Both the position numbers and the translations under genes were made by a program. Positions 1-44,124 of a stretch of 64,000 bases of DNA are shown here, one piece after another. The first letter of the stretch is position 1; each line of letters starts with the position of its first letter. The notes under the pieces are model-generated. The model ran no database searches. It saw only the letters and a list, made by a program, of their open reading frames with translations, and was not told where the DNA came from. The stretch comes from Candidatus Tritonobacter lacicola (GTDB lineage Bacteria > Auribacterota > Tritonobacteria > Tritonobacterales > Tritonobacteraceae), in contig JAVCDC010000125.1 in assembly GCA_030765135.1 (NCBI GenBank), forward strand, positions 31,607-95,606, written 5' to 3'.

Positions 1-447
1 AGCCGGCAGGGCCGCCCGCGACCCGAAGTACCTCCTGGCGATCTCGAAACAGATCATCAGGCCCGCCAGGCCGAAGCATGTTGAGGCCAGTATATAGCCC
101 AGCACCTCCGGGTAAGAATATCCGTTCGCCGCCAATGGAAAGCCGCAGTTCGAAAGAACCAGACTCGCGGCGAGCCCCGCAAGATAGAAAGGCGCGCAGA
201 GAAGGGGAGCGCCGATGGGGAACCACGTCTTTATGTACCCCCCGGGCGTCATCGCGCCGAGCTCGGGGTCCATCCGGAAGGCCGAGGGGTGATAATAAGC
301 GAACTCGTTGTAGAAGTTCAGGTCGCCGTCGATGACCATCGACCTCAGCTGCATGTAGTACTGCTTCCCGTCGATCGACAGCCAGGGCACGAGCGCGGCC
401 AGCGAGGCTATGAACAAAAGCAGGAGAAGTACGCGGGCCCTGCTCAT
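1..447 (-). CDS. 5'-portion (runs off window start) of a polytopic membrane protein, possibly another GT-C-type glycosyltransferase
   Basis: ATG at 447..445 overlaps the stop of the upstream gene in an ATGA junction. My hand translation of the minus strand gives MSRARVLLLLFIASLAALVPWLSIDGKQYYMQLRSMVIDGDLNFYNEF..., hydrophobic, with no stop before the window edge. It is absent from the ORF track because it is partial. Confidence 0.4.
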   Translation of the reverse strand, partial: MSRARVLLLLLFIASLAALVPWLSIDGKQYYMQLRSMVIDGDLNFYNEFAYYHPSAFRMDPELGAMTPGGYIKTWFPIGAPLLCAPFYLAGLAASLVLSNCGFPLAANGYSYPEVLGYILASTCFGLAGLMICFEIARRYFGSRAALPA

Positions 448-1952
448 CTCGTTCTCCTCACGAGAAATAGAAAGGAGACGGCGCAAACAACGAGCGGAGG
501 CACAACAGACAGCAGCAGCAAGGGAGGCAGACCAAGGCGGTAGAGATACGCCCACCACACGTCCGGGCCGCGCTCGAGCTCCCTCCGGAAAGACGTCTCC
601 TCCAGCACGGACGGGTCGCGGAGGTCGCCGGAGAGCTTCTTCCACGAGCAGTTGAGGTAGGAGCGCCACTGGGCCCTCAATGGGAAGTAGGCGGGATCGA
701 ATATTATATCGCCGTGAAGGACCTTTCTCCCGGGCCGGAAGAGAGGGTCGTCGGCCTCCCAGGGAACCATGGCGGCCTGGAGAAACCTCATCTCGCTCAC
801 GGAAACTGCCAGGACCTGAACGGCAAAGCTCGCGGCGATGACCATGACAAGAACGGCGGCAACGGGAGCGCTGTTCCGCCGCCGCAGCAGGGAACCCACG
901 GGTATAAGGGCGAAGGGAACGACCTGGAGCATGAAGCGCGGTCCCCAGCACCACCCGCCGTGCCAGTACCCCCACCTCGCGTAGAAGCACGTGTAAACGG
1001 CGATCAGTGAGACGAAAAGGAGCGCCTCCTTTCTATGTCCGGCGAAGAAGAAGAAAATCGACGGGAGGAAGAGGACTAGCACGGGAGAATAGATGAATAC
1101 GCTCTTGCCGGAGCTCAGGAGGAGGCCGTACAGGCCGACAAAAAAGGGAGTGGAGAACCCCGTGTCTATGTCCTGACCCTCGTAACCGGTTATCCATATC
1201 GAGCCGTAGCGCGCCCAGTTATAAGCGAGATTGACCGCCGCCGCCGCGGCAACAGGCGCAAGAAATGAAAAAAAACGGCGGGCGGCACGTCCGTCCCGGT
1301 GGGATGCACATGCAACATACACGCCGATAACGGCTATGGCAAGCGCGCCGTCCTGCCTCTCCAGCAGCGCCCCGCCCAGAAACGCCCCGCACGCGAAAAG
1401 CGTCGAGAGGCGCCCCCGGAGGCGGTACCGGTATGCGCAGCAGGCTCCAGAGAGGATGAGGAAAGCGCTTACCGGCTCCCGGAAGAACGTCTTTGAGTAC
1501 GGCCAGGCCATCGTCCCCAGACCGTAAAGCAGCGCCAGAAAGACTGAAGTCCTCTTCCCGTATCCAAGATCAAGGCAGAAGAGGTATATCACGGCGCAGG
1601 CCGCAGCGGTCGCGAATTGACCCAGGAGAGAGCAGGCGAACCGGGTGAAGAGGGTCCGGGGCAGGGATGGGAAAACGTCCGCCGCGGCACGGCCGACCAT
1701 GTAGAGGGGAACGGCCGCGACGGAATGGCCGATTTCGTACTTGGAGTAAAGATTTCCGTCCGGGCCGGGGCTTCCCATTATCCGGCCGGCGAACTCTTTC
1801 TCAACGGAGACCCTGCCGTCCTCAACGATGCTCCTCGTTACCTGGTACATCGTCTCGCCGTCGAAATGCTTGATAAAGCCCTTGGCCGTCAGGATGTACA
1901 GGGAAAAGAAAAAAATCCATATAAGAAAAGCGGTTTTTTTCCTCTCGGACAT
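444..1952 (-). CDS. GT-C fold membrane glycosyltransferase, ArnT/PMT_2-like (GT39/GT83-type)
   Basis: Internal start MSERKKTAFLIWIFFF at 1952; the ORF-track N-terminal extension is Gly/Ala-rich junk overlapping the divergent gene. More than 10 predicted TM helices, with loop motifs typical of polyprenol-P-sugar dependent GT-C enzymes. Confidence 0.6.
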   Translation of the reverse strand: MSERKKTAFLIWIFFFSLYILTAKGFIKHFDGETMYQVTRSIVEDGRVSVEKEFAGRIMGSPGPDGNLYSKYEIGHSVAAVPLYMVGRAAADVFPSLPRTLFTRFACSLLGQFATAAACAVIYLFCLDLGYGKRTSVFLALLYGLGTMAWPYSKTFFREPVSAFLILSGACCAYRYRLRGRLSTLFACGAFLGGALLERQDGALAIAVIGVYVACASHRDGRAARRFFSFLAPVAAAAAVNLAYNWARYGSIWITGYEGQDIDTGFSTPFFVGLYGLLLSSGKSVFIYSPVLVLFLPSIFFFFAGHRKEALLFVSLIAVYTCFYARWGYWHGGWCWGPRFMLQVVPFALIPVGSLLRRRNSAPVAAVLVMVIAASFAVQVLAVSVSEMRFLQAAMVPWEADDPLFRPGRKVLHGDIIFDPAYFPLRAQWRSYLNCSWKKLSGDLRDPSVLEETSFRRELERGPDVWWAYLYRLGLPPLLLLSVVPPLVVCAVSFLFLVRRTR

Positions 1953-2103
1953 CGGGGTTCCTATGGAAAGCGGTTCAGGCTGTGAAAGATTATGATATGA
2001 ACAGCGGTTCCAAAAGGCAAGGCAATAGGTTATGCTGTGAGCCTTTCGCGGAGGTGTTCCTATCAAGAGAAAAGCCGTATATTTTATCTTCCTGCTGCTG
2101 CTC

Positions 2104-3606
2104 GTGTCCTGCGCGCCCCGGCCGGGCGTGAAGCCGCCGGTGGAAGCCGCCGCCGTTCCTCCCCTCGAAGCGACCCCGGTTCCGGCGCGGCTCGCACCCT
2201 CGCCTGTCGAGGCGCGGCCAGCACCGGCCCCGTCCCCCAAACCCCCACCGTTCGCCGCATCGGAGATACGCGTCAACGCGGATAAAATCACCGGGAATAT
2301 AAAGAACGCCGCCGACCTGAACTGGTACTTCGACCCGGACTACGAGCTGCAGCCGAACTACGTGAGGATGTGGTGCCTGACGGGCAGGGTGCGGTCCAGG
2401 AAGGCCATATTCCCAGACCTGACGGCGGACCCGGACGATCCGTCCGCCTACAGGTGGGCCGCGCTCGATGAGAAACTTCTGGAGTACGCGGAAAGGGGCA
2501 TAAAGCCGTACATCCTCCTGTCCATCTCTCCGGCGGAGATCAACCGGATCAAGAGAGGCAACAAGACCCCCCGGTGGCTTATAGACAACAGGCGGAAGAT
2601 AGCCCGCTCGCTCGCGAGGATCGTTTATCACATCACAAGCAGGGACAGCTCCTGGAGCGGCATGGGGACGCGCGTCGACTACGTCGAATTATGGAACGAA
2701 CCCGGCGCCATGATCTACTGGGTCAACCCCTACAAGTACTGGCCGAAGAGAAAGTACTCCAGGAGCTGCTACTCCTGCCTTGTCGATATCTTCGAGATGA
2801 CTATCGCGGACATACGGGAGCTGTGCGGCCGGGAGGTACGGATCGGGGCGTGGGCGGGCTCGCAGCTCGCCGATGGCGGATTGGACATCAGGATCCTGGG
2901 GGAGATGAGCAAGCGGAGGGTCCCGCTGGACTTTTACAGCTGGCACGATTACCGCGTTCCGCCCGCGCTCTTCGATTTCGGCTTGCTTGACAGACATATT
3001 ACGGGAACCCGCGCGAGGCTCAGGGCGCGGGGGTACGGCATTCCGCAGCACATAACCGAATGGAACAACGTCTGCTGGTGCGCCGACGAGGAGGGCAACT
3101 GCGAACCATGTTCCGGTAAAAACGTCAATCACTGGTATCGAACGATAAAATCGGCGGCATACACAGCGGAGTACCTCATGCACGCCCAGGATATGCCCGT
3201 TGAAGTAACACACCGGTGGGACGGAGGCAAAGACTTCTACGGATTATGGGATAAAAGGGGCGCGTACCGCTATCCGGTATTCTACACCTATAAGCTGTTT
3301 CGCTCACTGCTCAGCAGCCGGAGGATAAATGCCGAATCCGACGATTATTTTGTCCTGGCGGGGAAGAAGGACGACAAGATAAACATCCTCATCGCCTGCG
3401 ACGAGTACAACAACAGCAGCGAAGGCTACAATCTAACAGTGGACGGCATCAGGTCAAGCTTCGGCTACACGGTCACGGCGGTCACGGAGGAGGAATACCG
3501 CGGCGGCACGGAGATAATCCAATCGGGGCAGGGAGAATCCATCCTGGACATAGCGGTACCCACGGACGACTACGCCGTTCACCTGATTGAAATAATCCGT
3601 GAATAA
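2104..3606 (+). CDS. clan GH-A glycoside hydrolase (GH5/GH39-like), probable lipoprotein; true start likely about 2062
   Basis: The ELWNEPG catalytic acid/base motif is typical of clan GH-A. The reading frame is open from 2041 and encodes KRKAVYFIFLLLLVSCA, i.e. n-region, h-region and lipobox L-V-S-C, upstream of the GTG at 2104. No in-frame ATG precedes it, so the start codon is ambiguous (ATC at 2062 or another rare start). Confidence 0.55.
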   Translation: MSCAPRPGVKPPVEAAAVPPLEATPVPARLAPSPVEARPAPAPSPKPPPFAASEIRVNADKITGNIKNAADLNWYFDPDYELQPNYVRMWCLTGRVRSRKAIFPDLTADPDDPSAYRWAALDEKLLEYAERGIKPYILLSISPAEINRIKRGNKTPRWLIDNRRKIARSLARIVYHITSRDSSWSGMGTRVDYVELWNEPGAMIYWVNPYKYWPKRKYSRSCYSCLVDIFEMTIADIRELCGREVRIGAWAGSQLADGGLDIRILGEMSKRRVPLDFYSWHDYRVPPALFDFGLLDRHITGTRARLRARGYGIPQHITEWNNVCWCADEEGNCEPCSGKNVNHWYRTIKSAAYTAEYLMHAQDMPVEVTHRWDGGKDFYGLWDKRGAYRYPVFYTYKLFRSLLSSRRINAESDDYFVLAGKKDDKINILIACDEYNNSSEGYNLTVDGIRSSFGYTVTAVTEEEYRGGTEIIQSGQGESILDIAVPTDDYAVHLIEIIRE

Positions 3607-3637: not shown

Positions 3638-5875
3638 ATGAAGAATTCCATTATAAAGAAAGTGAAGTGGCCTTTTTCTATCACCATCCTCACAGTCCTC
3701 GTCCTCATTTGCGCATGGCCCTTTGTAGGTTTTGAGAAGCCCTTCATCTTGTTGATCTACTTATTTATAAACCTGATCATTTTAATTATAACTCTATCGC
3801 TCAGGGTGCGATTTTTCGCTTCATGCCATGGAGCTGACGGCTTTCTGGTTGTTATCGCCCTGTTTCTTGCCCTTCTTATTGCAGGCCTGACCTTTCTTGG
3901 CCTTCTCGGCCTCCTTTCCCTTCAAAACTGCTTCATTATTTTCTCACTTATATTCCTGGCATTATTTCCCTTCCTGCCTGTTTCCGATGGAATCCATACG
4001 GCATTTCTATCATTGAGAAGGGTATTTAGCTTTAATAAAGAAAGGTTGCTTTTCTCACTCGCTCTCATAGCTATTATTCTCCTTGCATCGCACAGGGTAT
4101 ATACACCGCCCGCCAGCTACGACGACCTTATGTATCATCTCACTTATCCTGTTGAATGGCTCAAGAGCAATAGCATCTCCATGCCCCCGCCGACGCCGTT
4201 TGGATATCCCTGGCTGATCTACTTCCCCTTTAATGGAGAACTGCTTCTTTTCTGGTTCTTTCTTCCTTTGCAATCGGATTTTCTGGCGAAATTCGGCCAA
4301 ACCGGTTTTGTTCTTTTTACCTTAGCAGCGGTATTTGCTTTGTCCCAAAAAGTCGGGATGAAGCGGGATGCGGTCATCTGTTCCTGCCTTCTGGCGCTGG
4401 CGCTGCCGAAATTTTTACTTCAAGGAATATTCAGATCGGGGAATGATATTTTATTCGCTTTCCTCTTTCTCCTCAGCCTAAATTTCATTATTGCTTTATC
4501 AAGAAGGTTCTCTGTTTACAATGTTATATCTTTCTCGGTCGCTTTCGGATTGCTCGTGGGAACAAAGAGCCTGGGAATAATGTACGGGCTTCCCCTCTTC
4601 CTTTTCTTTGTACTCATGGTCTTCTATCGAATTAGTAAGTCGTCTCTGTCCGCGCTAAGCTCTTTATTCGTCTTCCTCGCTATTGTTTCTGCACTTGGCG
4701 GCGCAAGCTATGTTCGCAATTTTCTAGCCACGGGAAATCCCATCTTTCCCATAAGGGCAGCGATCGGAAAAACACTCATATTCAATGGTCCTATTGAAAA
4801 AGAAGACATATACAGATCATGGCAAACAGGATTAAACCCTATAGAGGACTACCCCGCGCTGGCGTTTATCATCGCGACCAGCGCGTTTGCCGGCTTCTTA
4901 AGTCTCCGAAGTCCTAAATACAGGAAAGGGATCCTATTTGTAGCCGGGCCCGCTCTCTATGTCGCTCTAATCTATTTTTTCGGCTTCATGAGGAACACTC
5001 GATATCTCTACCCGGGAATGATGCTTTCCGCAGTCAGTGCTTGCTGGGTAGCCGATCGGATAAGGATGAAGTACCGTGGAATTTATTTGGCCTTAATACG
5101 GTTCACTATCATTGCACTCTTCATATATATCCTGTGGGATCTCTTCAGTGGGGAGCATTTTTCTATCGGCTTGCTCTTTAATGGGTTTCTCGCCTTATGC
5201 GCGCTATGCATCTCAGGCATCCTGGCAATATTGCTCCCTTTAATTGTATTGCGCTACAGGCGCTCAGGTTCGCGCCTGGCAGCAGCCCTGTTTGCAACGC
5301 TTTCCATTGTCACCTTTATCTGGCTCGTTTTAACTGTTGGCAAAGCGTACGATAAAAAGAAATATAGCCGCCGCGAATGGCTGTTTTTTACACAGCATGG
5401 AGATGGGAAAGCGTGGAAATGGGTTGAGGATCATTCCATTCGAGGCGTAACGATTGCATATGCCGGCCTCGACAATAGCTATCCCCTCTATGGAAGCGAA
5501 TTACAGAATAAAGTAATTTATGTTTCTCGTGGCAAAAAGCCCCCACGAAAGTACGGCATCCCAGTTGACGAGGAGAATTGCCTGGTATATGTCTCCAGAG
5601 AAGAGGGCTGGGTCGCCGTCAACGACCCCGAGATGGACAGAAAAAACACCGAGGTTTTCGGATGGAATTACGATACCTGGCTAAAGAACCTCATAGACGA
5701 GGATGTTAACTGGTTATTCGTCCGCGGAACATATCGAAAAGCAAAGAAACACAGTGGCAAGAAGGTGATCGAATATCCCCTCGAGAATGAATGGGCAACC
5801 TCTCACCCCCAAGATTTCAGACTCATCTATTCCTCTGATGCATTTAAGATTTATGTCTTAAAAGGTAAAGGGTGA
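3638..5875 (+). CDS. GT-C-like polytopic membrane glycosyltransferase with C-terminal soluble domain (AT-rich gene)
   Basis: 745 aa, N-terminal two-thirds all TM helices, YDDLMYHL acidic loop near the first periplasmic loop. Codon usage is visibly AT-richer than its neighbours. It converges on and overlaps the next gene by 32 nt. Confidence 0.5.
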   Translation: MKNSIIKKVKWPFSITILTVLVLICAWPFVGFEKPFILLIYLFINLIILIITLSLRVRFFASCHGADGFLVVIALFLALLIAGLTFLGLLGLLSLQNCFIIFSLIFLALFPFLPVSDGIHTAFLSLRRVFSFNKERLLFSLALIAIILLASHRVYTPPASYDDLMYHLTYPVEWLKSNSISMPPPTPFGYPWLIYFPFNGELLLFWFFLPLQSDFLAKFGQTGFVLFTLAAVFALSQKVGMKRDAVICSCLLALALPKFLLQGIFRSGNDILFAFLFLLSLNFIIALSRRFSVYNVISFSVAFGLLVGTKSLGIMYGLPLFLFFVLMVFYRISKSSLSALSSLFVFLAIVSALGGASYVRNFLATGNPIFPIRAAIGKTLIFNGPIEKEDIYRSWQTGLNPIEDYPALAFIIATSAFAGFLSLRSPKYRKGILFVAGPALYVALIYFFGFMRNTRYLYPGMMLSAVSACWVADRIRMKYRGIYLALIRFTIIALFIYILWDLFSGEHFSIGLLFNGFLALCALCISGILAILLPLIVLRYRRSGSRLAAALFATLSIVTFIWLVLTVGKAYDKKKYSRREWLFFTQHGDGKAWKWVEDHSIRGVTIAYAGLDNSYPLYGSELQNKVIYVSRGKKPPRKYGIPVDEENCLVYVSREEGWVAVNDPEMDRKNTEVFGWNYDTWLKNLIDEDVNWLFVRGTYRKAKKHSGKKVIEYPLENEWATSHPQDFRLIYSSDAFKIYVLKGKG

Positions 5876-7340
5876 CGATATCATTGCCGGGTGAAGGAAA
5901 CTTCAGCGATGTCACCAGGTGGAAATCCGGGCCAGCCAGCGCGAGAACCGCTTCGTCCCCGTACACCGGCTCATACTTTGCCCATGAGACCAGCCAGACC
6001 CGCTCGTAGCCGGCCGCAGCCATCCCGAAATCCGTGACCACCTCGCCGGGGTCGAGCAACTCACCCCTCAGGTAGAAGGGAACCGGCTCGCGGGAGAGGA
6101 GAAACTCCGGATACCGGCCGCGGTGGTATATGACCGAGGGAAAATAAGTAAACGTCGCCCACCCCTCGCCGTCAAATATCACGGGCCGCTTCCCCGCGCC
6201 CTTGAGAACGTGGTGAATGATGCAGTCACCCGGCCGGTAACGCTCCTCGATATAATCGAATGCCGGCCTCACCCTTGTCCTGGAAACGAACGAGCAGCGG
6301 TAGTGCAGGGAGATGGCGAGGATGAATATTACCAGCAGTGAAACGAGAAGACGGAGCCGACCCCTCAGGCCCGCCAACGCGGAACCTATTAAAATCACGT
6401 ACGCCGGTGAGACAATAAGCAGGTAGCGGTTCAGCCAGACGGGGACGATGAGGCCGATTACGCCTGCCGTCACGACGGGAACAAAGAACCAGAGAGAGAG
6501 CATCAGAGCCGCGCGTTTCCGCCGCCTTAAAAGGCAGAAGAGCCCTGAACAGAAAAGTATTACGAGGGGCGTGTTGAGAAGGGCTGTGACAACGTAGTCG
6601 TCGCCGAAGTCGCAGCCTGTTCCCAGAAAGTGCCAGAGGGAGAGGAAAGACTGCAGGGATATTTTGCTCAGCCAGAAATCCTCTCCGATCCTCTGGACCT
6701 GCCTCGCAACCACAACCATCCAGGGCATAAAAAGAAGTAACAGGCAGACCTGGGAGACAAGCCATTGCCTCTTACTCTTCAAGGAGACACCGGAGAAAAA
6801 AAGCACGAAGACATTCTGGGCCAGGACGATAAAGACGCCGAAAAGATGGGTGTAGAGGGCGGCGGCGGAGCACAGGAAGCAGCCTGCGAGACGGCCCCTG
6901 CGGCCCTCACGGACCCACGCCCAGAGAAACAGAAAGGAAGCCGCAACCCAGAACTCGACCATTGAGTACATCCTCGCCTCCCGGGAATAGGCGATATTTA
7001 CGGGCGAGAATGCGGCGATAAGGGAGGAGTACGCCCCCGCGGGGTAGCCGGCCAGGCTGTTTCCCAGCCGCCACACCATGTAAACAGTGGCGACGCCGAA
7101 GGCCACCGAGAGAAGCCGCACCCACACCTCGCCCGTGCCGGCATACAGCCAGAAATGGAGCACAAGGTAATAGAGCGGGGGGACATTGTCGCTCGAGCAA
7201 AGCCCGACAAGCGAGCAGGGATCTCTCTCCGCGACGAGAAGCGTCGTCGCTTCGTCGAACCAGAATGCCTCGCCTCCCAGACCGTACAGCCGGAGAACTA
7301 CGGAGAGCGCCAGGATGGACAAAATGACGCCTCTTTTCAT
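5844..7340 (-). CDS. ArnT/PMT_2-family GT-C glycosyltransferase
   Basis: FWFDEATTLL and VPPLYYLV loop motifs of the PMT_2 family. Start MKRGVILS at 7340 is preceded by AAGGAGG with 11 nt spacing. ATGA overlap with the downstream gene at 7337. Confidence 0.65.
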   Translation of the reverse strand: MKRGVILSILALSVVLRLYGLGGEAFWFDEATTLLVAERDPCSLVGLCSSDNVPPLYYLVLHFWLYAGTGEVWVRLLSVAFGVATVYMVWRLGNSLAGYPAGAYSSLIAAFSPVNIAYSREARMYSMVEFWVAASFLFLWAWVREGRRGRLAGCFLCSAAALYTHLFGVFIVLAQNVFVLFFSGVSLKSKRQWLVSQVCLLLLFMPWMVVVARQVQRIGEDFWLSKISLQSFLSLWHFLGTGCDFGDDYVVTALLNTPLVILFCSGLFCLLRRRKRAALMLSLWFFVPVVTAGVIGLIVPVWLNRYLLIVSPAYVILIGSALAGLRGRLRLLVSLLVIFILAISLHYRCSFVSRTRVRPAFDYIEERYRPGDCIIHHVLKGAGKRPVIFDGEGWATFTYFPSVIYHRGRYPEFLLSREPVPFYLRGELLDPGEVVTDFGMAAAGYERVWLVSWAKYEPVYGDEAVLALAGPDFHLVTSLKFPSPGNDIVTLYLLRHKS

Positions 7341-8920
7341 AATCCACATTCCCTCCTTATGACAACCTCTCTCCGGCCTCCATCCGGGCCGTCCTGCCCG
7401 TAAACGACCTCTCTGAAGCGGGGCGACAGCCGGAAGACGGTTACCGGCGGCTCGCTGCATATCTCCTCGGATTTAATGCCCGGATCGTCGAATGCCATCG
7501 ATTCCGTCGGGCCGATAACGGCGATCTCGTCTATCTCCGGAATGAGGGCGATGACGCCATTATCACTCGCCGCCACCACTTTCCTCCCGTGATATACAAC
7601 GACCGGTTTAAGGCGGACAAAGTCGGAGTGATAAACGCGGCACTCCGGGAGGTAATAGGAAGCGAACTTCGTGTAGCCGTTGTTGAGGGAAAGGACGGCG
7701 GTTCGCCGATCCATCCCCCTTTCCCTCAATAATACAATCGCCTCCATGGCGCCCCCCTTATCCTCCAGCCGACGGAGTGAGAAACGCCCCCTTCCCGTCG
7801 CGAGGGCCATCGCAATACCCCCTCTCCTCGGGGGAAAGAGCATTGCCATGTTCAACGCGAGGGAGGCCGCGAGCGCCGTCAGCAAGGCCGGCGACCGGCG
7901 CCGGGAGGGCAGCCTGCAGAAAAGCAGGGCCAGGAGCAAGGCCAGGCCGGGTACGTATGTCAGGGTGTAGCCGGGCTTCTTAATGTGGAGAAGGAAGTAG
8001 TAGCAGAAAGGAGGGAGTATCCACCAGAGAAAGAAGGGCAGGGGCAGCTCCCTCCTCTTCCCGCCCGCCAGGGCCGAGGCCAGCAAGCACAGGAGGAGGA
8101 TACAGCACAACGGGCCGAAGCCGTAGAAGGTGTACAGGACGGCCTTGGCCGCGTTCGTTAGCCAGAGCCCGGCGGGATCCGTGAAGACCGAGGTTATATT
8201 GCTGTAGCCGTAGAGGAGACGCGAGGCGTCCATATAATCCCTGCCGAATAGAAGCAGGAGGGGAAGGAGCCATGATAGAACGGACAAGATCAGGGCGAGG
8301 AGGGGAACCAGCATCCCCCGTCCCCTGCCGCCCCTGAGCACGCAGTAGAGCCAGAGAGGGAGCAAAAAAAGGATGATATTCGCCCTGAACCCGCCGGCCA
8401 CGCCCAGCAGGACGGCCGAGATAACAGCCCACCCCGCCCCTCCTTTCGCCGCACGGTAACAGGCAAAGGCGACGAGCGCCGACCACATCCCCTCGGCAGC
8501 GTATATGGTGGAGATCTCCCCGTACAGCCAGAAGACGGGTGCGAAGAAGAGCACAATGGATGCCGTTATCGCAGTTTGCCGGCCGGCCAGCTCCCTGCCC
8601 AGGGCGTACACAGCCACGATAGTGCAGCAGGAAAAGACAAGGCTCAGGGCGGAAAGAGCGTCAGCGGCATCGCGAAGCAAAAGGTTAACCGCCCGCGCCG
8701 CGAGGATATAGAAGGGGTAGCCGGGCGGATGGGGGTGATGGAGAGGGACATTGTATTCCTCCAGGCCGAGTGCGAACTGTATCGAGTCCCACTCGTACAG
8801 GTACTCCGCCATGAAAGGGAGCCTCGTTAAGAGCAGAAGCGCGATAAATGCCGTAACGAACAGCCAGTCCCGGCCCGGCCAGCGCCCCGCTCTCACGCGC
8901 CGCCCTCCCGGGGAAACCAT
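7337..8920 (-). CDS. GT-C-like polytopic membrane protein (PMT_2-related; HPPGYPFY loop)
   Basis: 527 aa, multi-TM, EYLYEWDSIQFALG...HPPGYPFYI. The start is either ATG at 8920 (28-nt overlap with the upstream gene) or GTG at 8896 forming a GTGA junction with the upstream stop. Confidence 0.5.
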   Translation of the reverse strand: MVSPGGRRVRAGRWPGRDWLFVTAFIALLLLTRLPFMAEYLYEWDSIQFALGLEEYNVPLHHPHPPGYPFYILAARAVNLLLRDAADALSALSLVFSCCTIVAVYALGRELAGRQTAITASIVLFFAPVFWLYGEISTIYAAEGMWSALVAFACYRAAKGGAGWAVISAVLLGVAGGFRANIILFLLPLWLYCVLRGGRGRGMLVPLLALILSVLSWLLPLLLLFGRDYMDASRLLYGYSNITSVFTDPAGLWLTNAAKAVLYTFYGFGPLCCILLLCLLASALAGGKRRELPLPFFLWWILPPFCYYFLLHIKKPGYTLTYVPGLALLLALLFCRLPSRRRSPALLTALAASLALNMAMLFPPRRGGIAMALATGRGRFSLRRLEDKGGAMEAIVLLRERGMDRRTAVLSLNNGYTKFASYYLPECRVYHSDFVRLKPVVVYHGRKVVAASDNGVIALIPEIDEIAVIGPTESMAFDDPGIKSEEICSEPPVTVFRLSPRFREVVYGQDGPDGGRREVVIRRECGL

Positions 8921-37545: not shown

Positions 37546-37633
37546 TAATCCCGCCATGTCCATCGATCAGGCGCGTAAAAAAGAATAATTATCACCCCGG
37601 GGCGTCATTAGCAAGAGAGAATACAACAGCGTA

Positions 37634-38581
37634 TTAATCCTCGAACAGGTACGTATTATCGAAGCCGCCCCTGAGTCTTCTGAATACTATGAAATTGATG
37701 TAGTGCTCGGGATAACGCCTTACGTATCCATCCAGAATATCGATGAAGGCCTGAGTATTGGCCATGAGGTCAGCCTCCTTATCCCCGGAATCCCGCAAAC
37801 GCATCGGCTCGTGAACGACGATCCGGTGGCGGCCTCCCCTCTCCCTGAGGACGAACGTCGGCAGCACCGACGCCCCCGTTTTTACCGATAGGGCCATCGG
37901 CTCGAGCGAAAAGAGGGCCTTCCTGTCGAGGAAGTCAAACGGGGCCTTCCGTCTTCCTCCCCCTCCGTCTATGGCCAGGCCGAGCACCTCGTTCCGCTTC
38001 AGGCACCTGAATGCCGGCCGCAGGAACTCGAAGACGTCGATGTGGCGGACGGGAAGGTTGCTTTCCAGCTCCCAGCGAAGCTGGAAACTTTTTATCATCA
38101 TAGGTGTGGCGGCCTTCCCCATGATATCTTTCCAGACGACGGGGCTGGCGCTGATCTGGTTCATATGGTAACCGCGGCGGCCGAACGCGGGCATGATCAT
38201 CTGGTTCTGCCCGAAGTGGGCGATGAGCAGGATAGCCCCCCTGCCCTTCTCGAGGCCCGCGTCGAGATATTCCTTCCCCTCGACCTTCGTCATCTTTTCC
38301 ATGACCTTCCTGTTCATGCGGGGGTACATGAACACCTCCAGGTCGTTCATAACCTGGAGCACAAAGGCCTCCCTGGCTATCCCGCGGTCGCCGCCGCCGT
38401 GTTTGAACTTTCCGAGCTCCTCGAGCATCAGCTCCCTTTTTCTCCCGCCCAGGGCGAAGGAAGCGAGGCCCAGCAGCCGGCCGAAGCCGGGTATAAGGGA
38501 GAGGGGCATGAGGGAGACGAGGTATCTCACCGGGTACCACAGGAAAAAAATGAGAACGTCCTTCGCGCAGCGCCTGATCAC
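37634..38581 (-). CDS. LpxL/HtrB-like (LPLAT superfamily) lipid A-type acyltransferase
   Basis: N-terminal TM (VLIFFLWYPVRYLVSLMPLSLIPGF) and an ILLIAHFGQNQM block in the position of the HX4D box. The ORF-track N-terminus is Arg-rich overlap junk. A GTG at 38581 forms a GTGA junction with the upstream flippase stop. Confidence 0.45.
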   Translation of the reverse strand: MIRRCAKDVLIFFLWYPVRYLVSLMPLSLIPGFGRLLGLASFALGGRKRELMLEELGKFKHGGGDRGIAREAFVLQVMNDLEVFMYPRMNRKVMEKMTKVEGKEYLDAGLEKGRGAILLIAHFGQNQMIMPAFGRRGYHMNQISASPVVWKDIMGKAATPMMIKSFQLRWELESNLPVRHIDVFEFLRPAFRCLKRNEVLGLAIDGGGGRRKAPFDFLDRKALFSLEPMALSVKTGASVLPTFVLRERGGRHRIVVHEPMRLRDSGDKEADLMANTQAFIDILDGYVRRYPEHYINFIVFRRLRGGFDNTYLFED

Positions 38582-40026
38582 GCCCCTCCTCCTTCCCCGC
38601 CCCGGGGCGGGTGCGCCAGCGCCTCGCCCAGGAGCCGCACGTCTTCGAGCGTGAAAGCCCTTAAGAGACAGGCGGCGGCGAGGAAGGCCGCTACGGCGAC
38701 AGCGCCCCATCCCAAGCCGTCTCCGGCGTAAAGGAGGAGCAAGCCCGCCGGGACCGCGGCAAGAAGGGGCCTGATAAGCTGCACGCAGTCGACCGCCACC
38801 ACCTTAGCCCGCGCGAAGACAAGCGAGACGACGCAGAGGAGGGCGTACGAGGCGAGCATCGACCAGCTCGCCCCGATGTACCCCCACCGCGGCACGGTGA
38901 TGATATCCAGACACAGGTTCAGGGAGAAACACAGTATCAGGCTCGCCAGGACGTACCCCTGGCGGTCCGCCGAGATCAGGAGATAATGGGTAAGCTGGAC
39001 GAGAAAGAGGAACGGGATCGCGCAGCCCAGGATCCTGAGGGCGGCGCCGCTTGCCTCGAACTCGCTCCCACCTATCGCGAGGACAATGGGAGGGGCGTAC
39101 TTGACTATGAGGATAAAGAAAAGGAGGCCGAGGCTGAAGAGGAGCTTGAAGGACTTATCGAACGCCACCTTCAGGGCATCGATCGAGCTGAGCGCCAGCC
39201 GGGAGAAGACCGGGAAGATAGCCACGACGGTGGCTGAGGAGACTATTACCAGCTGGAGGACGACCGTGTGCGGCAGGCTGAAAAGGCTCACATCCTCGGC
39301 CTTCCCGATGCTCTTGATCATGAAGACGGGCATGTTGAACGAAGCCATCAGGAAAAAGGCCGAAAGGCCGAGGGGATATGACTCGCCCAGCAGCTTTGCC
39401 CATATGTTCTTCGCCAGTTTCAATCGTACCCGGGTAAATTTCCTGTGGATAATGATCAGGCCGACAACCATCCTGATCAGCTGGGAGACCGAGAGAGAGG
39501 CGAAGATGGCCACGAAACCCAGGTCGAATTTCGCGACTATTATCAGCAGCAGGATGGAAATGCCCCGCAGAACGACGGCCAGCAGCGTCTCGTACTCCAT
39601 CTTCTCGAAACCCTTGTACACGGATATGAAGAGCATGGCCGTCGAGGCGAAGAGCTGCGACGCGGTCGCTATGGCGAGCGCCAGGATAAACATGAGAGGC
39701 ATGCCGAGGGCGAGTACCACACACATCTCTACCAGGAAGGCCACGCCGACGATGATCAACCTGAGGGAAAGCGCCGCGTCCATCAGCTCCTCGGCCCGGT
39801 CCCTGTTGCGGGCCACCTCCCTGGTGATTATGCCCTCGACGCCGAAATCGGCTATGAGCTTCAGCATCTCTGCTATCGCCACGAGGAAGAAGTAATTGCT
39901 GCCTCCTTTCGCGCCCAGATACCTGCTCACGATGGAAAGGAGGAGAACGCCGAACCCGATATTTATGATGTTCGAGACGAATACCGCGACGGTGTTCTTG
40001 GCGAGTGTTCTTAAAGGGTTGGACAT
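38578..40026 (-). CDS. MOP-superfamily polysaccharide flippase (Wzx/PST-like)
   Basis: 14 predicted TM helices; start MSNPLRTLAKNTVAVF at 40026, a typical Wzx N-terminus. Confidence 0.6.
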   Translation of the reverse strand: MSNPLRTLAKNTVAVFVSNIINIGFGVLLLSIVSRYLGAKGGSNYFFLVAIAEMLKLIADFGVEGIITREVARNRDRAEELMDAALSLRLIIVGVAFLVEMCVVLALGMPLMFILALAIATASQLFASTAMLFISVYKGFEKMEYETLLAVVLRGISILLLIIVAKFDLGFVAIFASLSVSQLIRMVVGLIIIHRKFTRVRLKLAKNIWAKLLGESYPLGLSAFFLMASFNMPVFMIKSIGKAEDVSLFSLPHTVVLQLVIVSSATVVAIFPVFSRLALSSIDALKVAFDKSFKLLFSLGLLFFILIVKYAPPIVLAIGGSEFEASGAALRILGCAIPFLFLVQLTHYLLISADRQGYVLASLILCFSLNLCLDIITVPRWGYIGASWSMLASYALLCVVSLVFARAKVVAVDCVQLIRPLLAAVPAGLLLLYAGDGLGWGAVAVAAFLAAACLLRAFTLEDVRLLGEALAHPPRGGEGGGA

Positions 40027-40126
40027 TGCTGATCCCGCATACGTAAATCTTCCTGGCAGGGACGGCACAGCACCGCATCCCGCGTTCTATCCGCGTGCCC
40101 GCGGCGAAGGGCGGGCCGGCGGGCGA

Positions 40127-40489
40127 TCACGCCTTTTTCATCTCGCGCAACTTCCTGTAGAGATCGTTGGTCAGGAGCGCCTGCCTCTGTGTCATGCGGT
40201 TAATCTGGCGGGTCAGGGCGGATATCCTGATGGAGAAATGGAGGCATATCAGGATAATAAAGAAGAGGCCGAAAAAAAGCAGCGTCGATGTAAAGAGGAC
40301 GGCGCCGATCATGCTCGTCATGTAGTCGAGAAGCTCCTGCCATATGGAGAGGATGAAAATCGATACCCCCGCCACCAGCCATCCCACCGAGTACTCCTCG
40401 TTAAGGTGCCTCCTCCTCACGAGATCGAAGACATAGATAACAAGCAGAAAACTGAACGCAACCGCGATAATCCTTATTTTCGGGGGCAT
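40127..40489 (-). CDS. small 3-TM membrane protein, DUF2304-like partner of GT2 polyprenol-phosphate glycosyltransferases
   Basis: 120 aa, VFDLVRRRHLNEEYSVGWL motif; overlaps the upstream GT2 gene end by 16 nt. Confidence 0.4.
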   Translation of the reverse strand: MPPKIRIIAVAFSFLLVIYVFDLVRRRHLNEEYSVGWLVAGVSIFILSIWQELLDYMTSMIGAVLFTSTLLFFGLFFIILICLHFSIRISALTRQINRMTQRQALLTNDLYRKLREMKKA

Positions 40490-41205
40490 AATCGACCTCC
40501 TGCCGGTTTCTGCCTCAACAGCGTCACCGCTATGGACAGGAACATTTTGAAAATGTAGTAAATATTTTTATGCCCTCTGTGCATCGACTTGCCCTTCTCG
40601 GGCATGTACATCTTGACAGGGACCTCCCTGATCCGGAATTTCGCGAAGTGCAGCAGAATAAGAACGTCCGCGTCAGGGTAATCCACGGGAAAGACGTCCG
40701 TGCAGAAAAGCTCCACGACGGGCCGCCTCATGGCCTGGAAGCCGCTCGTGGGGTCCGTCACCTTCTGGCGGATGACCAGCGAGGCCGTCAACCCGAAGAG
40801 ACCCATGCCGATCCTCCGCGAAAAAGACGGCTTGTAGCCGGTCTCTCCCAGAAAGCGGGAGCCGACGACAACGTCGGCATCGCCCGAGAATATCGGCCGG
40901 AGAAGCGTTTTGAGCGAGGATGGGTCGTGCTGGCCGTCGCCGTCCATCTGGACGACGATATCGTACCCGTTCAGCCTGGCGTAGAGGTACCCCGTCTGGA
41001 GGGCGGCGCCGTAGCCTATGTTGTGGTAGAGAGAGACGACATCAGCCCCCTCCCTGAGAGCTATCTCCGCGGTGTCATCGCTCGACCCGTCGTTTATCAC
41101 GACGATATCGGCATCCGGGAGCTCCGACTTTACGCCCTCGATCACGGAGGCTATCGTCTTCGCCACGTTGAAAGACGGTATGATTACGAGAATCCTGTCA
41201 TTCAT
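40474..41205 (-). CDS. GT2 polyprenol-phosphate glycosyltransferase (DPM1/ArnC/GtrB-like)
   Basis: VIIPSFNVAKTI...VVINDGSSDDT...QMDGDGQHDP, the diagnostic motifs of Und-P/Dol-P sugar synthases; 243 aa with a C-terminal amphipathic tail. Confidence 0.7.
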   Translation of the reverse strand: MNDRILVIIPSFNVAKTIASVIEGVKSELPDADIVVINDGSSDDTAEIALREGADVVSLYHNIGYGAALQTGYLYARLNGYDIVVQMDGDGQHDPSSLKTLLRPIFSGDADVVVGSRFLGETGYKPSFSRRIGMGLFGLTASLVIRQKVTDPTSGFQAMRRPVVELFCTDVFPVDYPDADVLILLHFAKFRIREVPVKMYMPEKGKSMHRGHKNIYYIFKMFLSIAVTLLRQKPAGGRLCPRK

Positions 41206-41330: not shown

Positions 41331-42764
41331 CTATCCCCCGGTCCAGCAGCGGAGGATGCCCGAGCACGTCCCCGAATAAGCGTCCCGGCCCGCTATATGC
41401 TCGACCACATCCGCGTAAACTCTGCGCCGCGAATCAGTATCCAGAGAAGTGTTGTGCCAGAGAAGGACAAATACGCCCCCGTGATCGCTGACGGTGGAGA
41501 GAAGGGCTTCGACCTCCGACAGCGCCTCACCATCCCTCCCCTCGTTCCTGCCGGCCGTGAGGGCGGCGTCCGTCGCCGTAACCGGAATTTCCCAGAGGGG
41601 CAGCTCGCGGCCGCGGCGGAGATCGAACACCCTGTATGGAAAACAGACCCCGCAGCGGAAACCATTGCTCCCGCGAAAGGAAAGCGTGGAATCGTAGAGC
41701 AAACCGGCATCCGCCATGGCACTCCATGTCACCGGGTTCTTCCACAAAAGGCGCTGCTGCCTCGCGCCGGGGGCCGCCCTGCCGATGAGACGGGAGAGCC
41801 TGCGCCTCTCCTCCGCCATCCTCCGGGGATCATCATGGCCGTAAACGCCGCCGTGGAGCCCTATCTCGTGGCCGCGGCTCGCTATGTACTTCACGAGCTG
41901 GCTCGGGCCGGCGTCCAGTATCGAGTAGACCTCCTCCGGGCCGGTATCGTAGTCCGTGCGTATGAAGAAACTCGACCTCATTCCGAGGCGCTCCTCCAGG
42001 TTCATGATGAAGTCGAACGTCCAGTAGGGATCCCGCCTAGTCCCCCTGGCGACGGCAAGAGCGTCGAGGGCCAGGCGCGCGGAGGCGGCAAACCTCCCCC
42101 TGAGCATATCCCCGGCCATTTCCCGTATGACCCGGCGAGGGGTGTACTTCCGGATACGGTCAACGTTATGGGTGAGACAGACGGCGAACTTCCTCCCCCT
42201 CCAACCCGGCCGATCCCCGAGGTTGACGTCCAGCTCGCCGACCCATGAACGGAAAAGGTCGAGGTACCGGTTCACGATGGGATAGGAAAGGAACCCCTCC
42301 CTGAAAGCGAGGCTCGATGATACGGGGAAGCAGCCATACTCATCCCTCTCCCCGGGGATATACTCCTCGTACCTGGTTATCATAAAAAATGTGGCCGCCG
42401 GGATGTCGATATTGGTACTGAGCATCGAGCGGTCCCGCACGAAGAACGGCTCGACGCTCTCCCCGCCCGTGTATATGACCGGAAGACCGTCGTATTCCGG
42501 GAGAGGCGTAGCGGGCAGGGACCCCGCCTCCTTGTAGGCCTCGTAGAGGAGAGGAGAACGGTAGATGTGAATATGCTTTTTAGCCTGGATAGCCGGGACG
42601 GAGCTTCCGTATGAGACGAGGAGGTCTTCCGGGGGGATCGCGGAAATGTCGGATAAAGGAAAGAGATGATAATCGAGCCCCGAAAGCTCCATCATGGCTT
42701 TCAGCGCGTAACATACCTCCGCGGAATGCGGGCCTTTCTCGTATGCTAAAGCTATCCTGGACAT
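41331..42764 (-). CDS. polysaccharide deacetylase-like (CE4/NodB-related) protein
   Basis: CLTHNVDR and HEIGLHGG motifs, with an N-terminal extra domain. Confidence 0.45.
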   Translation of the reverse strand: MSRIALAYEKGPHSAEVCYALKAMMELSGLDYHLFPLSDISAIPPEDLLVSYGSSVPAIQAKKHIHIYRSPLLYEAYKEAGSLPATPLPEYDGLPVIYTGGESVEPFFVRDRSMLSTNIDIPAATFFMITRYEEYIPGERDEYGCFPVSSSLAFREGFLSYPIVNRYLDLFRSWVGELDVNLGDRPGWRGRKFAVCLTHNVDRIRKYTPRRVIREMAGDMLRGRFAASARLALDALAVARGTRRDPYWTFDFIMNLEERLGMRSSFFIRTDYDTGPEEVYSILDAGPSQLVKYIASRGHEIGLHGGVYGHDDPRRMAEERRRLSRLIGRAAPGARQQRLLWKNPVTWSAMADAGLLYDSTLSFRGSNGFRCGVCFPYRVFDLRRGRELPLWEIPVTATDAALTAGRNEGRDGEALSEVEALLSTVSDHGGVFVLLWHNTSLDTDSRRRVYADVVEHIAGRDAYSGTCSGILRCWTGG

Positions 42765-42836
42765 ATTTACACAGCGTATTACGGTTTTACAATAGTCATT
42801 GCGAGCGCAGGAAAATACTTTCGCTGCGGAGAATGC

Positions 42837-43106
42837 TCACGGGCGGCGACGCCGATCTTCCTTGAAGCGGCGGGCAGCTGGGGAGATCTCTCTTCGCAGA
42901 CGGATCATTTCCCGGAGGATATCGAGGATCACGCCGGGTTTCGGGAGGTTCAACAACCTCCCCTTGCCGATCTCGAAACAGGTAGCCCCCGCAACCCTCG
43001 GTAAATGCGTAACGCCGACCTCGATAATATGCTGAATGTTCCCCTCCTCGTTGTAGGCGGGAAAAAACGCGCTGATCGACCTAACCCTGAACTGTTGATG
43101 TGTCAT
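42837..43106 (-). pseudogene. possible N-terminal remnant of a GT2 glycosyltransferase
   Basis: The 89-aa ORF begins ...SISAFFPAYNEEGNIQHIIEVGV, matching a GT2 N-terminus, then lacks the DDGS.D region and degenerates; it is isolated inside a 400-bp intergenic region. Confidence 0.25.
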
Positions 43107-43170
43107 ACGGGGCCTTAAAATATTACGTCAAGAACCTGCCGGCCGGGTTCTGTAATTCACCTCTTACCAT

Positions 43171-44124
43171 CTAATACCGACCGAACAGCTTATTCATGTA
43201 GCCGACAGCCGCGCCGGCCACGCCGGCTATCCCCTTCAAGACGCCGGCAAACGGGTAGACTACGGCCGTCAAGGCTCCATACCGGGCGCACACGCGAAAA
43301 GCGTCCGGCACGTGGAGGAGGAGGAGGAGCACGAGCATCACGGGAGGCAGCAGTGGCAGCCAGGGGATCGCGACGAGCGAAGCCAGAAGGAGAGCCGCGC
43401 CGGCGACCTGCGCCCTGATCCATATATCGCTTCTGAATATATCCCCCCTGAGATGCGGACGGTACCGGGCGTACAGGTAATTCCGCGTCAGGTAACCCCT
43501 CAGGGTGCTCTTGTAGTGGTGCCACGCTATCGCTTCCGCAACATACACAAGCCTGTAGCCGGCGGAGATTATCTTCTGGTTCAGGTCCGCGTCGAGGCAG
43601 GAGTTGTACAGGGCCTCTTCGAACACCCCGAAGCGCCTGAACACCTCCGGCCGGTAGACGGCGTTGGCCGAGGTGATATGCATCGCGTATTTCGGCTGAG
43701 AATCAAACTTCTTATCAACGTCGTACCCGGCGACCCGCGCTATCAGGTTCGAGCTGGCGGGGGTCAGAAGGTGCCCCCCGGCGCCCATGACGCTCTCGTC
43801 TCCGAACTCCGGCAGGATGAGCGAAAGCCAGTCCGGCGAAACCTGCACGTCGGATTCCACGAGCGCTATATAGTCGCCGGCGGCCATGGCGAGCGCCGCG
43901 TTCAGGGCGGCCGACTCACCCCTGTTGGGCTGACGGACAAGGTCGATAATCTCCGGGAACCTCTCCCCGTACGATAACGCCACGTCATAGGTGCCATCGG
44001 TGGAGCCGTCGTCCACGACAATGATGCGGCGCTCGAAACCACCCTCAAGGTCAAGGACAGACTGTATGGCCGCGCCTATGGTACCGGCGGCGTTATATGC
44101 GGGCATTAAAAAGCTGATCTTCAT
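43171..44124 (-). CDS. GT2 family glycosyltransferase with C-terminal membrane anchor
   Basis: Start MKISFLMPAYNAAGTI at 44124 (ATGA overlap with the upstream rSAM stop); IVVDDGSTDGT and ESDVQVSPDW motifs; C-terminal TM helices. Confidence 0.6.
   Translation of the reverse strand: MKISFLMPAYNAAGTIGAAIQSVLDLEGGFERRIIVVDDGSTDGTYDVALSYGERFPEIIDLVRQPNRGESAALNAALAMAAGDYIALVESDVQVSPDWLSLILPEFGDESVMGAGGHLLTPASSNLIARVAGYDVDKKFDSQPKYAMHITSANAVYRPEVFRRFGVFEEALYNSCLDADLNQKIISAGYRLVYVAEAIAWHHYKSTLRGYLTRNYLYARYRPHLRGDIFRSDIWIRAQVAGAALLLASLVAIPWLPLLPPVMLVLLLLLHVPDAFRVCARYGALTAVVYPFAGVLKGIAGVAGAAVGYMNKLFGRY

Follow-up and report, generated by a model that had tools for sequence, protein, structure and literature searches.

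The 64,000-nucleotide stretch analysed here (the window; contig JAVCDC010000125.1) comes from Candidatus Tritonobacter lacicola, an uncultured member of the phylum Ca. Auribacterota (PVC group) from Ace Lake, Antarctica, and contains most of a surface-glycan locus of more than 75 kb, which extends to the left of the window. The locus probably directs the synthesis of a surface polysaccharide of the Wzx/Wzy/Wza/Wzc type that is heavily glycosylated in the periplasm from polyprenyl-phosphate sugar donors. An original prediction, made from positions 1–44,124, had named nine membrane glycosyltransferase (GT) genes of the GT-C fold, a GT2 enzyme with a DUF2304 partner, a Wzx flippase and a Wzy_C protein. 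All nine were confirmed by sequence, profile or fold comparison as GT-C-fold membrane glycosyltransferase homologues. Together with a tenth, encoded left of the window, they were shown to span at least five mutually distant subfamilies. Proteins identical to those of the window were found in NCBI, JGI, ENA and Logan assemblies.

Nine GT-C homologues in the window

According to the open reading frame (ORF) listing, long minus-strand genes follow one another nearly without a break from position 1 to about 59.6 kb, and two plus-strand genes break this run at 2.1–5.9 kb. The nine GT-C candidates are long ORFs, eight on the minus strand and one (3638–5875) on the plus strand. They are listed below, "loop-1" being the stretch after the first hydrophobic segment.

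1–447, minus strand: N-terminal 149 codons of a 677-amino-acid (aa) GT-C, the remainder lying left of the window; loop-1 SIDGKQYY
444–1952, minus strand: ArnT/PMT-like GT-C, 502 aa; loop-1 HFDGET
3638–5875, plus strand: divergent PMT/PMT_2-type GT-C, 745 aa, with about four extra N-terminal helices, the motif YDDLMYHL and a C-terminal alpha/beta domain
5844–7340, minus strand: PMT_2 (GT39/GT83-like) GT-C, 498 aa; PMT_2 8e-9, 36.3 bits, above gathering; loop-1 FWFDEATT
7337–8920, minus strand: PMT_2/TMEM260-like GT-C, 527 aa; PMT_2 1.4e-8, 35.5 bits, and TMEM260-like 2.1e-7, both above gathering; loop-1 YEWDSIQF
8893–10323, minus strand: GT-C, 476 aa; loop-1 NLDYAES
11937–13772, minus strand: GT-C homologue, 611 aa; probable C-terminal TPR region at residues 459–555
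17855–19429, minus strand: probable PMT_2-type GT-C, 524 aa; PMT_2 1.9e-4, 22.1 bits, sub-threshold; PGAP name "glycosyltransferase family 39 protein"; loop-1 FKADEGRL
31428–33770, minus strand: YfhO-family GT-C, 780 aa; YfhO (PF09586) 58.7 bits, cutoff 28.5; PGAP name "YfhO family protein"; loop-1 FFHDIFHHH

Evidence for the nine came from Pfam, homologues, hhalign profile comparisons, predicted folds and PGAP names. Seven had been called ArnT/PMT_2-like; as GT-C homologues all seven stood, but the gathering threshold of Pfam PMT_2 (PF13231; GT39/GT83-like; 26.1 bits) was passed by only two, the remainder relying on transitive, profile or fold evidence. No Pfam match even at E ≤ 10 was obtained for 1–447, 444–1952, 3638–5875, 8893–10323 or the membrane part of 11937–13772. 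PGAP names 5844–7340 "glycosyltransferase family 39 protein", and 444–1952, 3638–5875, 8893–10323 and 11937–13772, together with a lipoprotein gene at 2104–3606, carry the GenBank/PGAP name "hypothetical protein". The start codons of 444–1952, 5844–7340, 8893–10323 and 17855–19429 agreed with PGAP or JGI calls.

For 444–1952, 156 homologues were found, many with PF02366 or PF13231 at E-values of 1e-76 to 1e-50 and some named as ArnT-family or GT39 proteins. A family profile built from 38 sequences gave a sole PDB match, the protein O-mannosyltransferase TMEM260 (1.9e-4). The NCBIfam model of a putative Leptospira GT (LA_3751/LA_3752) matched 444–1952 at 8e-15, under its cutoff, and 11937–13772 weakly. 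When other window proteins were aligned to the 444–1952 family profile with hhalign, the 677-aa protein (full gene at positions 11506–13539 of L090, another contig of the same organism) gave a probability of 98.5 (E 3e-15, 342 columns; 90.6 for the 1–447 fragment by itself), 11937–13772 gave 98.4 (E 5e-15, 336 columns), and 3638–5875 gave 98.3 in an alignment beginning exactly at the YDD motif.

Predicted folds were compared for two proteins, 3638–5875 (pTM 0.78) and 8893–10323 (pLDDT 83.7, pTM 0.86), whose AlphaFold2 models are both helical bundles. All 18 significant Foldseek matches of the former were GT-C proteins, ArnT being first (E 7e-7, TM-scores 0.40/0.52) and STT3, ALG9 and DPY19 also present. 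The latter likewise matched GT-C proteins only: ArnT (5ezm) first (E 1.7e-5, TM-scores 0.60/0.54), then ALG12, AftA, ALG6 and PglB. Few relatives of 8893–10323 were found; the distant ones (87–95% of its length, E 1e-14 to 6e-12) carry PMT_2, and as a single query it found no relative among 185,579 species representatives. Direct phmmer searches of PDB sequences with 3638–5875 and 5844–7340 gave nothing useful.

Among 37 sampled members of the 3638–5875 family, 12 matched PMT_2 and 6 matched PMT. That this protein represents an orphan family was considered and rejected: a word-indexed search found 9 relatives, as against 4,736 full-length cluster representatives at E ≤ 1e-30 in an exhaustive hidden Markov model search, which gave more than 20,000 matches at E ≤ 1e-10. 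Its orphan look was thus an artefact of low sequence identity, and by these matches it is a divergent branch of the PMT/PMT_2 clan and no new family. The gene has a GC content of 0.455, and of 0.515 at third codon positions, its neighbours having 0.58–0.64 and 0.72–0.84; of two relatives, L008 has a homologue and L007 has none. This foreign composition and patchy presence suggest that it was gained recently by horizontal transfer or by exchange inside the locus.

The YfhO score of 31428–33770 had its best stretch at residues 690–757 only, the C-terminal end of the model, and weak C-terminal matches to PgfM2 and PgfM1 (NCBIfam) were also seen. This protein gave no hhalign signal with the 444–1952 profile, nor did 17855–19429 with the 444–1952 and 8893–10323 family profiles, so that the support for these two is that of Pfam and PGAP. 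A hydropathy scan gave about six separate hydrophobic peaks in 444–1952 and roughly at least nine in the other full-length candidates, overlapping peaks inflating some of the counts.

In an all-against-all BLAST comparison the nine GT-Cs had almost no mutual similarity, indicating old and distinct subfamilies rather than recent duplicates and arguing for separate specificities. Several neighbours overlap (the 677-aa gene and 444–1952; 5844–7340 and 7337–8920; 7337–8920 and 8893–10323), which would fit co-translation and, we conjecture, possibly complexes.

A putative donor module

The GT2 (motif DGDGQHDP), the DUF2304 partner, the Wzx-family protein and the Wzy_C protein were likewise borne out, with Pfam scores above gathering for DUF2304, Polysacc_synt and Wzy_C.

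40474–41205, minus strand: GT2, candidate polyprenyl-phosphate-sugar synthase, 243 aa; Glycos_transf_2 1.8e-22; MDGDGQHDP; no C-terminal transmembrane (TM) segment
40127–40489, minus strand: DUF2304 small membrane protein (3 TM segments), GacJ/Rv3632 homologue; Pfam 5.2e-23, 81.8 bits, above gathering
38578–40068, minus strand: Wzx/MOP-family flippase (Polysacc_synt); Pfam 2.5e-26, above gathering; directly after the GT2 and DUF2304 genes
43171–44181, minus strand: second GT2, with at least two C-terminal TM segments

The best NCBIfam match of 40474–41205 was PpgS, the polyprenyl-phospho-GalNAc synthase of Mycobacterium tuberculosis (1.7e-28; 99.6 bits, cutoff 370), followed by AglJ and Dol-P-hexose transferase, all under their equivalog cutoffs; weak similarity to PgfS was also found. 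The last 16 nt of the GT2 gene are shared with the start of the DUF2304 gene. GacJ, the DUF2304 protein of Streptococcus pyogenes, stimulates the GT2 GacI by binding or along with binding to it, Rv3632 and PpgS of M. tuberculosis act likewise, and experiments on such pairs showed that polyprenyl-phosphate-N-acetylhexosamine (HexNAc) donors are made (10.1101/180810). The Wzx-family protein GacK is the proposed flippase of GlcNAc-P-undecaprenol, and the GT-C GacL moves the sugar onto the polymer (10.1101/180810). Here the Wzx-family gene directly follows the GT2 and DUF2304 genes, as gacK follows gacIJ; by this analogy its product may flip the monophosphate donor instead of, or besides, repeat units. 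That GT-Cs use such lipid-linked donors on the outer face of the inner membrane, as the prediction had assumed, is the established logic of these families.

Polymerase, export genes and relatives

10390–11817, minus strand: Wzy_C membrane protein, 475 aa, candidate polymerase or ligase; Pfam Wzy_C 1.4e-15, above gathering

The Wzy_C gene sits within the GT-C block. Its product also matched NCBIfam IctB-like (1e-11) and repeat-unit polymerase (2e-5) models, and PGAP names it "O-antigen ligase family". Left of the window, on contig L090, lie in order the rest of the 677-aa GT-C, the tenth GT-C (513 aa; PMT_2 5e-17, 62.9 bits), a Lip_A_acyltrans gene, a GT4, a B12-radical SAM gene, Wza (Poly_export/SLBB) and Wzc (Wzz, GNVR and P-loop kinase), the last two 8–10 kb from the window. 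Wzx, Wzy, Wza and Wzc are thus all present in one locus.

Comparison with relatives agreed with a conserved locus. The same left-flank order was found in a relative with 56–70% protein identity (L007, L092), and the GT-C block is syntenic in a second relative (L008). In L007 an additional GT-C of the GT87 family (DUF2029; positions 8699–9922) lies between the Wzy_C gene and the orthologue of 8893–10323. With this extra gene, and without a homologue of 3638–5875, L007 indicates that the GT-C content of the locus differs between lineages.

Because the linkage of Wza, Wzc and GT4 is kept in two lineages, the surface-polysaccharide reading is the best supported, ahead of its rivals. The original prediction had allowed for stepwise glycan assembly or for protein O-glycosylation; this context left of the window favours a surface polysaccharide over the latter. 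In Wzy-dependent capsule and O-antigen loci the repeat units are usually assembled in the cytoplasm by GT-A and GT-B enzymes, and at most one to a few GT-Cs are present, for late side chains. Here ten mutually distant GT-Cs stand against two GT2 enzymes and one GT4 in the sequence seen, which suggests that in this lineage glycans are built mainly by lipid-donor-dependent glycosylation in the periplasm.

The loop-1 acid and possible protein O-glycosylation

Eight of the nine window GT-Cs (SIDG, HFDGE, YDD, FDE, EWD, LDYAE, ADE and FHD) and the tenth gene (LFEDEV) have an acidic residue behind the first hydrophobic segment, a position that would place it on the periplasmic side after the first TM segment. 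This residue was kept in the orthologues and family alignments available: the loop-1 Asp is present in 36 of 38 members of the 444–1952 family, D162 is near-invariant and Y166 and H167 are invariant in the 3638–5875 family, and E44 is invariant in that of 8893–10323. The conserved loop Asp/Glu expected of such enzymes was therefore seen in all but 11937–13772, where the loop-1 stretch of three orthologues is N-I-G-A-N/S/G-T and contains no acid.

Classical PMTs (GT39) carry MIR domains; the Pfam scan gave no MIR match in any candidate. The C-terminal tail of 11937–13772, originally compared with protein O-mannosyltransferases, did match TPR models, all under gathering (best 1.2e-5; TPR_16 26.1 bits, cutoff 32.7), but the architecture is that of TMTC/TMEM260 (PMC7801869) rather than of a classical PMT, and the loop-1 Asp is missing. 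Two proteins encoded among the GT-C genes are of interest as possible acceptors:

2062–3606, plus strand: probable lipoprotein with a Pro/Ala-rich linker after the Cys; signal peptide and lipobox LLVSC only from an ATC start at 2062
13923–17303, minus strand: large hydrophilic protein, 1126 aa (the longest ORF, TTG start); no Pfam match above threshold

The lipoprotein ORF as called begins at GTG 2104, in mid signal peptide. The upstream in-frame codons read IKRKAVYFIFLLLLVSC, and the L007 orthologue has a full signal peptide and lipobox. No Pfam or NCBIfam match was found for this protein, and its match to a glucosidase (5z3k, E 0.03) is weak. 13923–17303 is kept beside the GT-C block in both relatives; weak or better DUF6259 matches in its orthologues and its weak similarity to a fragment of a pectate disaccharide-lyase (E 3.6e-4) suggest that it may be a glycan-processing enzyme.

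An alternative function for some or all of the PMT_2-type GT-Cs would be protein O-glycosylation, in which they act like PMT, TMTC or TMEM260 and move a sugar from the polyprenyl-phosphate donor to Ser/Thr of secreted proteins or lipoproteins, for example one of these two. This would account for the TMEM260-like Pfam match of 7337–8920, for TMEM260 as the only PDB match of the 444–1952 profile, for the TPR-like tail of 11937–13772, as in TMTC enzymes (PMC7801869), and for a Pro/Ala-rich-linker lipoprotein encoded within the block; the weak PgfM1/PgfM2 matches of the YfhO gene also recall the protein-glycosylation system of S. mutans. However, a Wzy_C gene lies in the block, GT4, Wza and Wzc are contiguous in two lineages, none of the candidates has a MIR domain, the catalytic-loop Asp is missing from the TPR protein, and PMT_2 is broad enough to take in ArnT-like lipid and glycan transferases. 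We regard protein O-glycosylation as unlikely.

Thr-type AP-superfamily proteins

Downstream of the donor module, the YfhO gene is embedded among four paralogues of the alkaline phosphatase (AP) superfamily:

27235–29046, minus strand: membrane-anchored AP-superfamily paralogue, nucleophile motif T-N-P-S-H
29370–31163, minus strand: membrane-anchored AP-superfamily paralogue, nucleophile motif T-N-P-S-H
33775–35628, minus strand: membrane-anchored AP-superfamily paralogue, nucleophile motif T-N-P-S-H
35689–37563, minus strand: membrane-anchored AP-superfamily paralogue, nucleophile motif T-N-P-S-H

They are 50–65% identical to one another, and each has about 165 N-terminal residues with 4–5 hydrophobic segments. 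The AP domains resemble aryl- and choline-sulfatases more than EptA, whose N-terminal domain they do not have; short EptA/MCR matches occur around their DHGES metal motif. The paper describing these metagenome-assembled genomes (MAGs) counts sulfatases among degradative functions (PMC9324843). The C/S-x-P-x-R signature is absent from all four paralogues, and the nucleophile was Thr in 98 of 98 homologue matches from many phyla. The possibility that they are real sulfatases, matured by a nearby radical SAM/SPASM protein (46645–47577), was rejected, the signature Cys/Ser being replaced by Thr and the Arg by His. They are unlikely to be formylglycine sulfatases and, by analogy with GacH, EptA and LtaS, more likely act as phospho-transferases or phosphodiesterases.

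LtaS also brings up a teichoic-acid-like periplasmic phosphoglycan, in which a polyol- or sugar-phosphate chain would be primed or polymerised by the AP paralogues, in the manner of the LtaS paralogues, and YfhO with the GT2 would glycosylate it, as CsbB/YfhO do in Bacillus. The gene order GT2, DUF2304, Wzx, acyltransferase, AP, AP, YfhO, AP, AP and the Thr nucleophile of the paralogues and their homologues are compatible with this, and YfhO/CsbB provides a precedent (PMC5836110). However, LtaS is not among the matches listed for one AP paralogue (the best 60 of 72 PDB matches), the N-terminal membrane domain was unrelated to LtaS in the searches made, and AP homologues from other phyla show no linkage to YfhO or GT-C genes. 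Moreover, teichoic acids are not known in diderm PVC bacteria, and we consider this possibility very improbable.

An alignment scan of the genome collection (GTDB species representatives) with the AP paralogues found 80 loci in many phyla, at 30–38% identity only. A tblastn comparison of all window proteins with these 80 loci showed that they are not generally linked to GT-C, YfhO or Wzx genes; one Nitrospinota locus alone shared GT2 and radical SAM genes. As no equivalent locus was met in these scans, the architecture looks lineage-specific.

Candidate tailoring genes, neighbouring genes and a possible role in lipopolysaccharide

The remaining features of the window are mostly candidate tailoring genes:

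19464–20792, minus strand: B12-binding radical SAM gene
20922–22418, minus strand: B12-binding radical SAM gene
22415–23548, minus strand: SGNH/GDSL protein
23608–25182, minus strand: B12-binding radical SAM gene
25505–27031, minus strand: B12-binding radical SAM gene
37634–38710, minus strand: LpxL/PatA-family (Lip_A_acyltrans) acyltransferase; Pfam 1.4e-16
41331–42764, minus strand: DUF7033/VimE-like nucleotide-sugar or polysaccharide deacetylase; DUF7033 1.7e-23, NCBIfam VimE 3.5e-47, under cutoff
44121–45548, minus strand: HpnJ/AprD4-like radical SAM gene
45703–46440, minus strand: SAM methyltransferase
46645–47577, minus strand: radical SAM/SPASM gene
48185–49630, minus strand: B12-radical SAM gene
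52488–54086, minus strand: Kdo/WaaP-family protein, 532 aa, with two Kdo/WaaP-kinase-like regions; RfaP-like kinase match 3e-26 (NCBIfam)

A Gfo/Idh/MocA oxidoreductase is also encoded in the window. The locus has eight radical SAM genes in total, seven in the window (six B12-binding, one SPASM) and one at L090:17689–19134. None of the seven window proteins reached an NCBIfam equivalog cutoff, partial matches being to HpnJ, BchE, BzaD, ladderane-lipid type and AprD4 models. Within positions 1–44,124, the four Thr-type AP proteins, five B12-radical SAM genes, the acyltransferase, the SGNH protein and the VimE-like deacetylase are observations beyond the original prediction. In the text of the MAG description paper (PMC9324843) the terms glycosyltransferase, radical SAM, lipopolysaccharide, O-antigen and glycosylation are all absent.

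Directly downstream of the tailoring genes, 51528–55662 (minus strand) encodes a GGDEF response-regulator diguanylate cyclase, the Kdo/WaaP-kinase-like protein and a PAS histidine kinase; the GGDEF and histidine kinase neighbours could point to control of the glycan locus linked to cyclic di-GMP. A Tol-Pal-type cluster lies at 59345–63998, with a LysM protein, an OmpA/Pal-like protein, TolB, a TonB_C/TolA-like protein and ExbD/TolR. This cluster, at the window's right end, points to a diderm envelope with a periplasm.

In such an envelope the acceptor might instead be lipopolysaccharide (LPS): the GT-Cs would be ArnT-like enzymes acting on lipid A or core, the AP proteins phosphoethanolamine transferases of the EptA type, the Lip_A_acyltrans proteins LpxL-like, 52488–54086 a core kinase and the Wzy_C protein a WaaL ligase. 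ArnT tops the Foldseek matches of both models, two Lip_A_acyltrans genes are present, 52488–54086 has an RfaP-like kinase match (3e-26), PGAP names the Wzy_C protein "O-antigen ligase family", short EptA/MCR matches occur at the DHGES motif, and the organism is diderm. Set against this, no supporting match reaches an equivalog cutoff; NCBIfam lauroyl acyltransferase and phosphatidylinositol mannoside acyltransferase matches of 37634–38710, too, are under cutoff. The AP domains are nearer to aryl- and choline-sulfatases and without the EptA N-terminal domain, Wza and Wzc indicate a capsule or exopolysaccharide (EPS) route, and ten ArnT-like enzymes on one lipid A-core would be unprecedented. 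Assembly or decoration of LPS is thus an improbable explanation for the locus. The polysaccharide, protein, LPS and phosphoglycan readings are not mutually exclusive and may coexist across the ten enzymes.

A proposed route

The surface polysaccharide would be made as follows. Nucleotide sugars or precursors would be tailored by the radical SAM enzymes, methyltransferase, deacetylase and oxidoreductase, the tailoring of nucleotide sugars being cytoplasmic, and a few GT-A/GT-B enzymes would make a repeat unit or primer on polyprenyl diphosphate. In parallel, on the cytoplasmic side, the GT2, aided by DUF2304, would attach a sugar, probably HexNAc or hexose, to polyprenyl monophosphate. Both the repeat unit or primer and the monophosphate sugar would be flipped, and at the periplasmic face the ten GT-Cs would place the donor sugar at different positions of the glycan, a small number of donors supplying many transferases, as when mycobacteria make arabinan and mannan. 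The YfhO-type GT-C and the four AP proteins could form a GacHIJKL-like sub-module adding sugar and phospho-substituents, the AP-superfamily enzymes adding or removing the latter. Wzy would polymerise the glycan and Wza-Wzc would export it.

Every component is from a described family, and the proposed mechanism is the established three-component scheme. Three-component periplasmic glycosylation is a general pathway (PMC11127046; PMC8035078), and YfhO is a GT-C that works with the GT2 CsbB (PMC5836110, PMC8035078). Systems with "multiple GT-Cs" exist, and their significance "warrants investigation" (PMC11127046); judged by its gene content, this locus is an extreme case of them.

Among the closest known systems are GacHIJKL, the side-chain module of the group A carbohydrate of S. 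pyogenes, and PpgS/Rv3632/Rv3779 of M. tuberculosis. As in these, a small GT2 without membrane anchor is followed by DUF2304, and, as in GacHIJKL, a Wzx-family gene, a GT-C and membrane-anchored AP-superfamily enzymes lie in the same block. There, however, one GT-C and one GacH are found, as against ten GT-Cs and four AP paralogues here. The AP domains here resemble sulfatases and not LtaS, the host belongs to a diderm candidate phylum, and the backbone is probably Wzy-dependent with Wza/Wzc, whereas that of the group A carbohydrate depends on an ABC transporter. Gtr-type (GtrA/GtrB/GtrC) and pentofuranose GT136 systems (PMC11127046) share the sequence of synthase, flippase and then a GT-C acting on Wzy-made glycan. 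Unlike them, the locus has no GtrA or MATE flippase, its GT2 lacks the C-terminal TM helices of GtrB and has a DUF2304 partner, and its GT-C number is far above the one to few reported for three-component systems.

In the assembly of mycobacterial arabinogalactan and lipoarabinomannan (EmbA/B/C, AftA-D, PimE, MptA-C, using decaprenylphosphoryl arabinose or polyprenyl-phosphomannose), too, many GT-Cs share one or two polyprenyl-monophosphate donors, as they would here; AftA, EmbB and AftD were among the fold matches, and a PatA-family acyltransferase homologue is present. The window genes, in contrast, have no sequence-level membership of GT53, GT85 or GT87 (GT87 being found only in the relative L007), and they form one cluster with Wzy, Wza and Wzc in a PVC-group diderm. 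ArnC/ArnT lipid A modification resembles the locus in its donor-making GT2 and in ArnT as the best structural match of both models, but identity to ArnT is 12–13% and no Arn pathway genes are present. With CsbB/GtcA/YfhO and PgfS/PgfM the locus shares a YfhO-family GT-C near a GT2 with weak PgfS similarity; it differs in that strong alignment to the YfhO model is confined to its C-terminal part, GtcA is lacking and the host is diderm.

Several observations weigh against the surface-polysaccharide reading. No initiating phosphoglycosyltransferase of the WbaP/PglC or WecA type was found in the window ORFs or in 10 kb leftward, and no GtrA-type flippase was found. There is one clear polyprenyl-phosphate-sugar synthase for ten GT-Cs, and as this GT2 has no equivalog-level match its sugar is not assignable from sequence. 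11937–13772, with no loop-1 acid, may use another residue or be non-catalytic, and 17855–19429 combines a sub-threshold PMT_2 score with no profile signal. The TMEM260-like and TPR features, the Pro/Ala-rich lipoprotein, the LpxL-like acyltransferases and the WaaP-like kinase would fit the rival acceptors, and all functions are read from the sequence of an uncultured organism.

Significance

What is unusual about the locus is its scale (a single Wzy/Wza/Wzc locus with ten GT-Cs, four Thr-type AP enzymes and eight radical SAM genes), its PVC-group host and its lineage-specific architecture. A stronger version of our proposal, which we put forward as doubtful, is that most of a heteroglycan would be built outside the cytoplasm, ten GT-Cs with one or two donors forming a mycobacterial-style line joined to Wzy, Wza-Wzc, periplasmic phospho-transfer and radical-SAM-tailored sugars; this mode would be undescribed for a Gram-negative capsule or EPS.

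For annotation, four proteins that GenBank lists as "hypothetical protein" can now be described as homologues of GT-C glycosyltransferases, and four sulfatase-like annotations are flagged as unlikely sulfatases. If the proposal is true, the locus would offer a compact set of ten divergent, donor-sharing GT-Cs useful for the study of acceptor specificity, and mycobacterial-style extracytoplasmic glycan assembly would reach a diderm candidate phylum.

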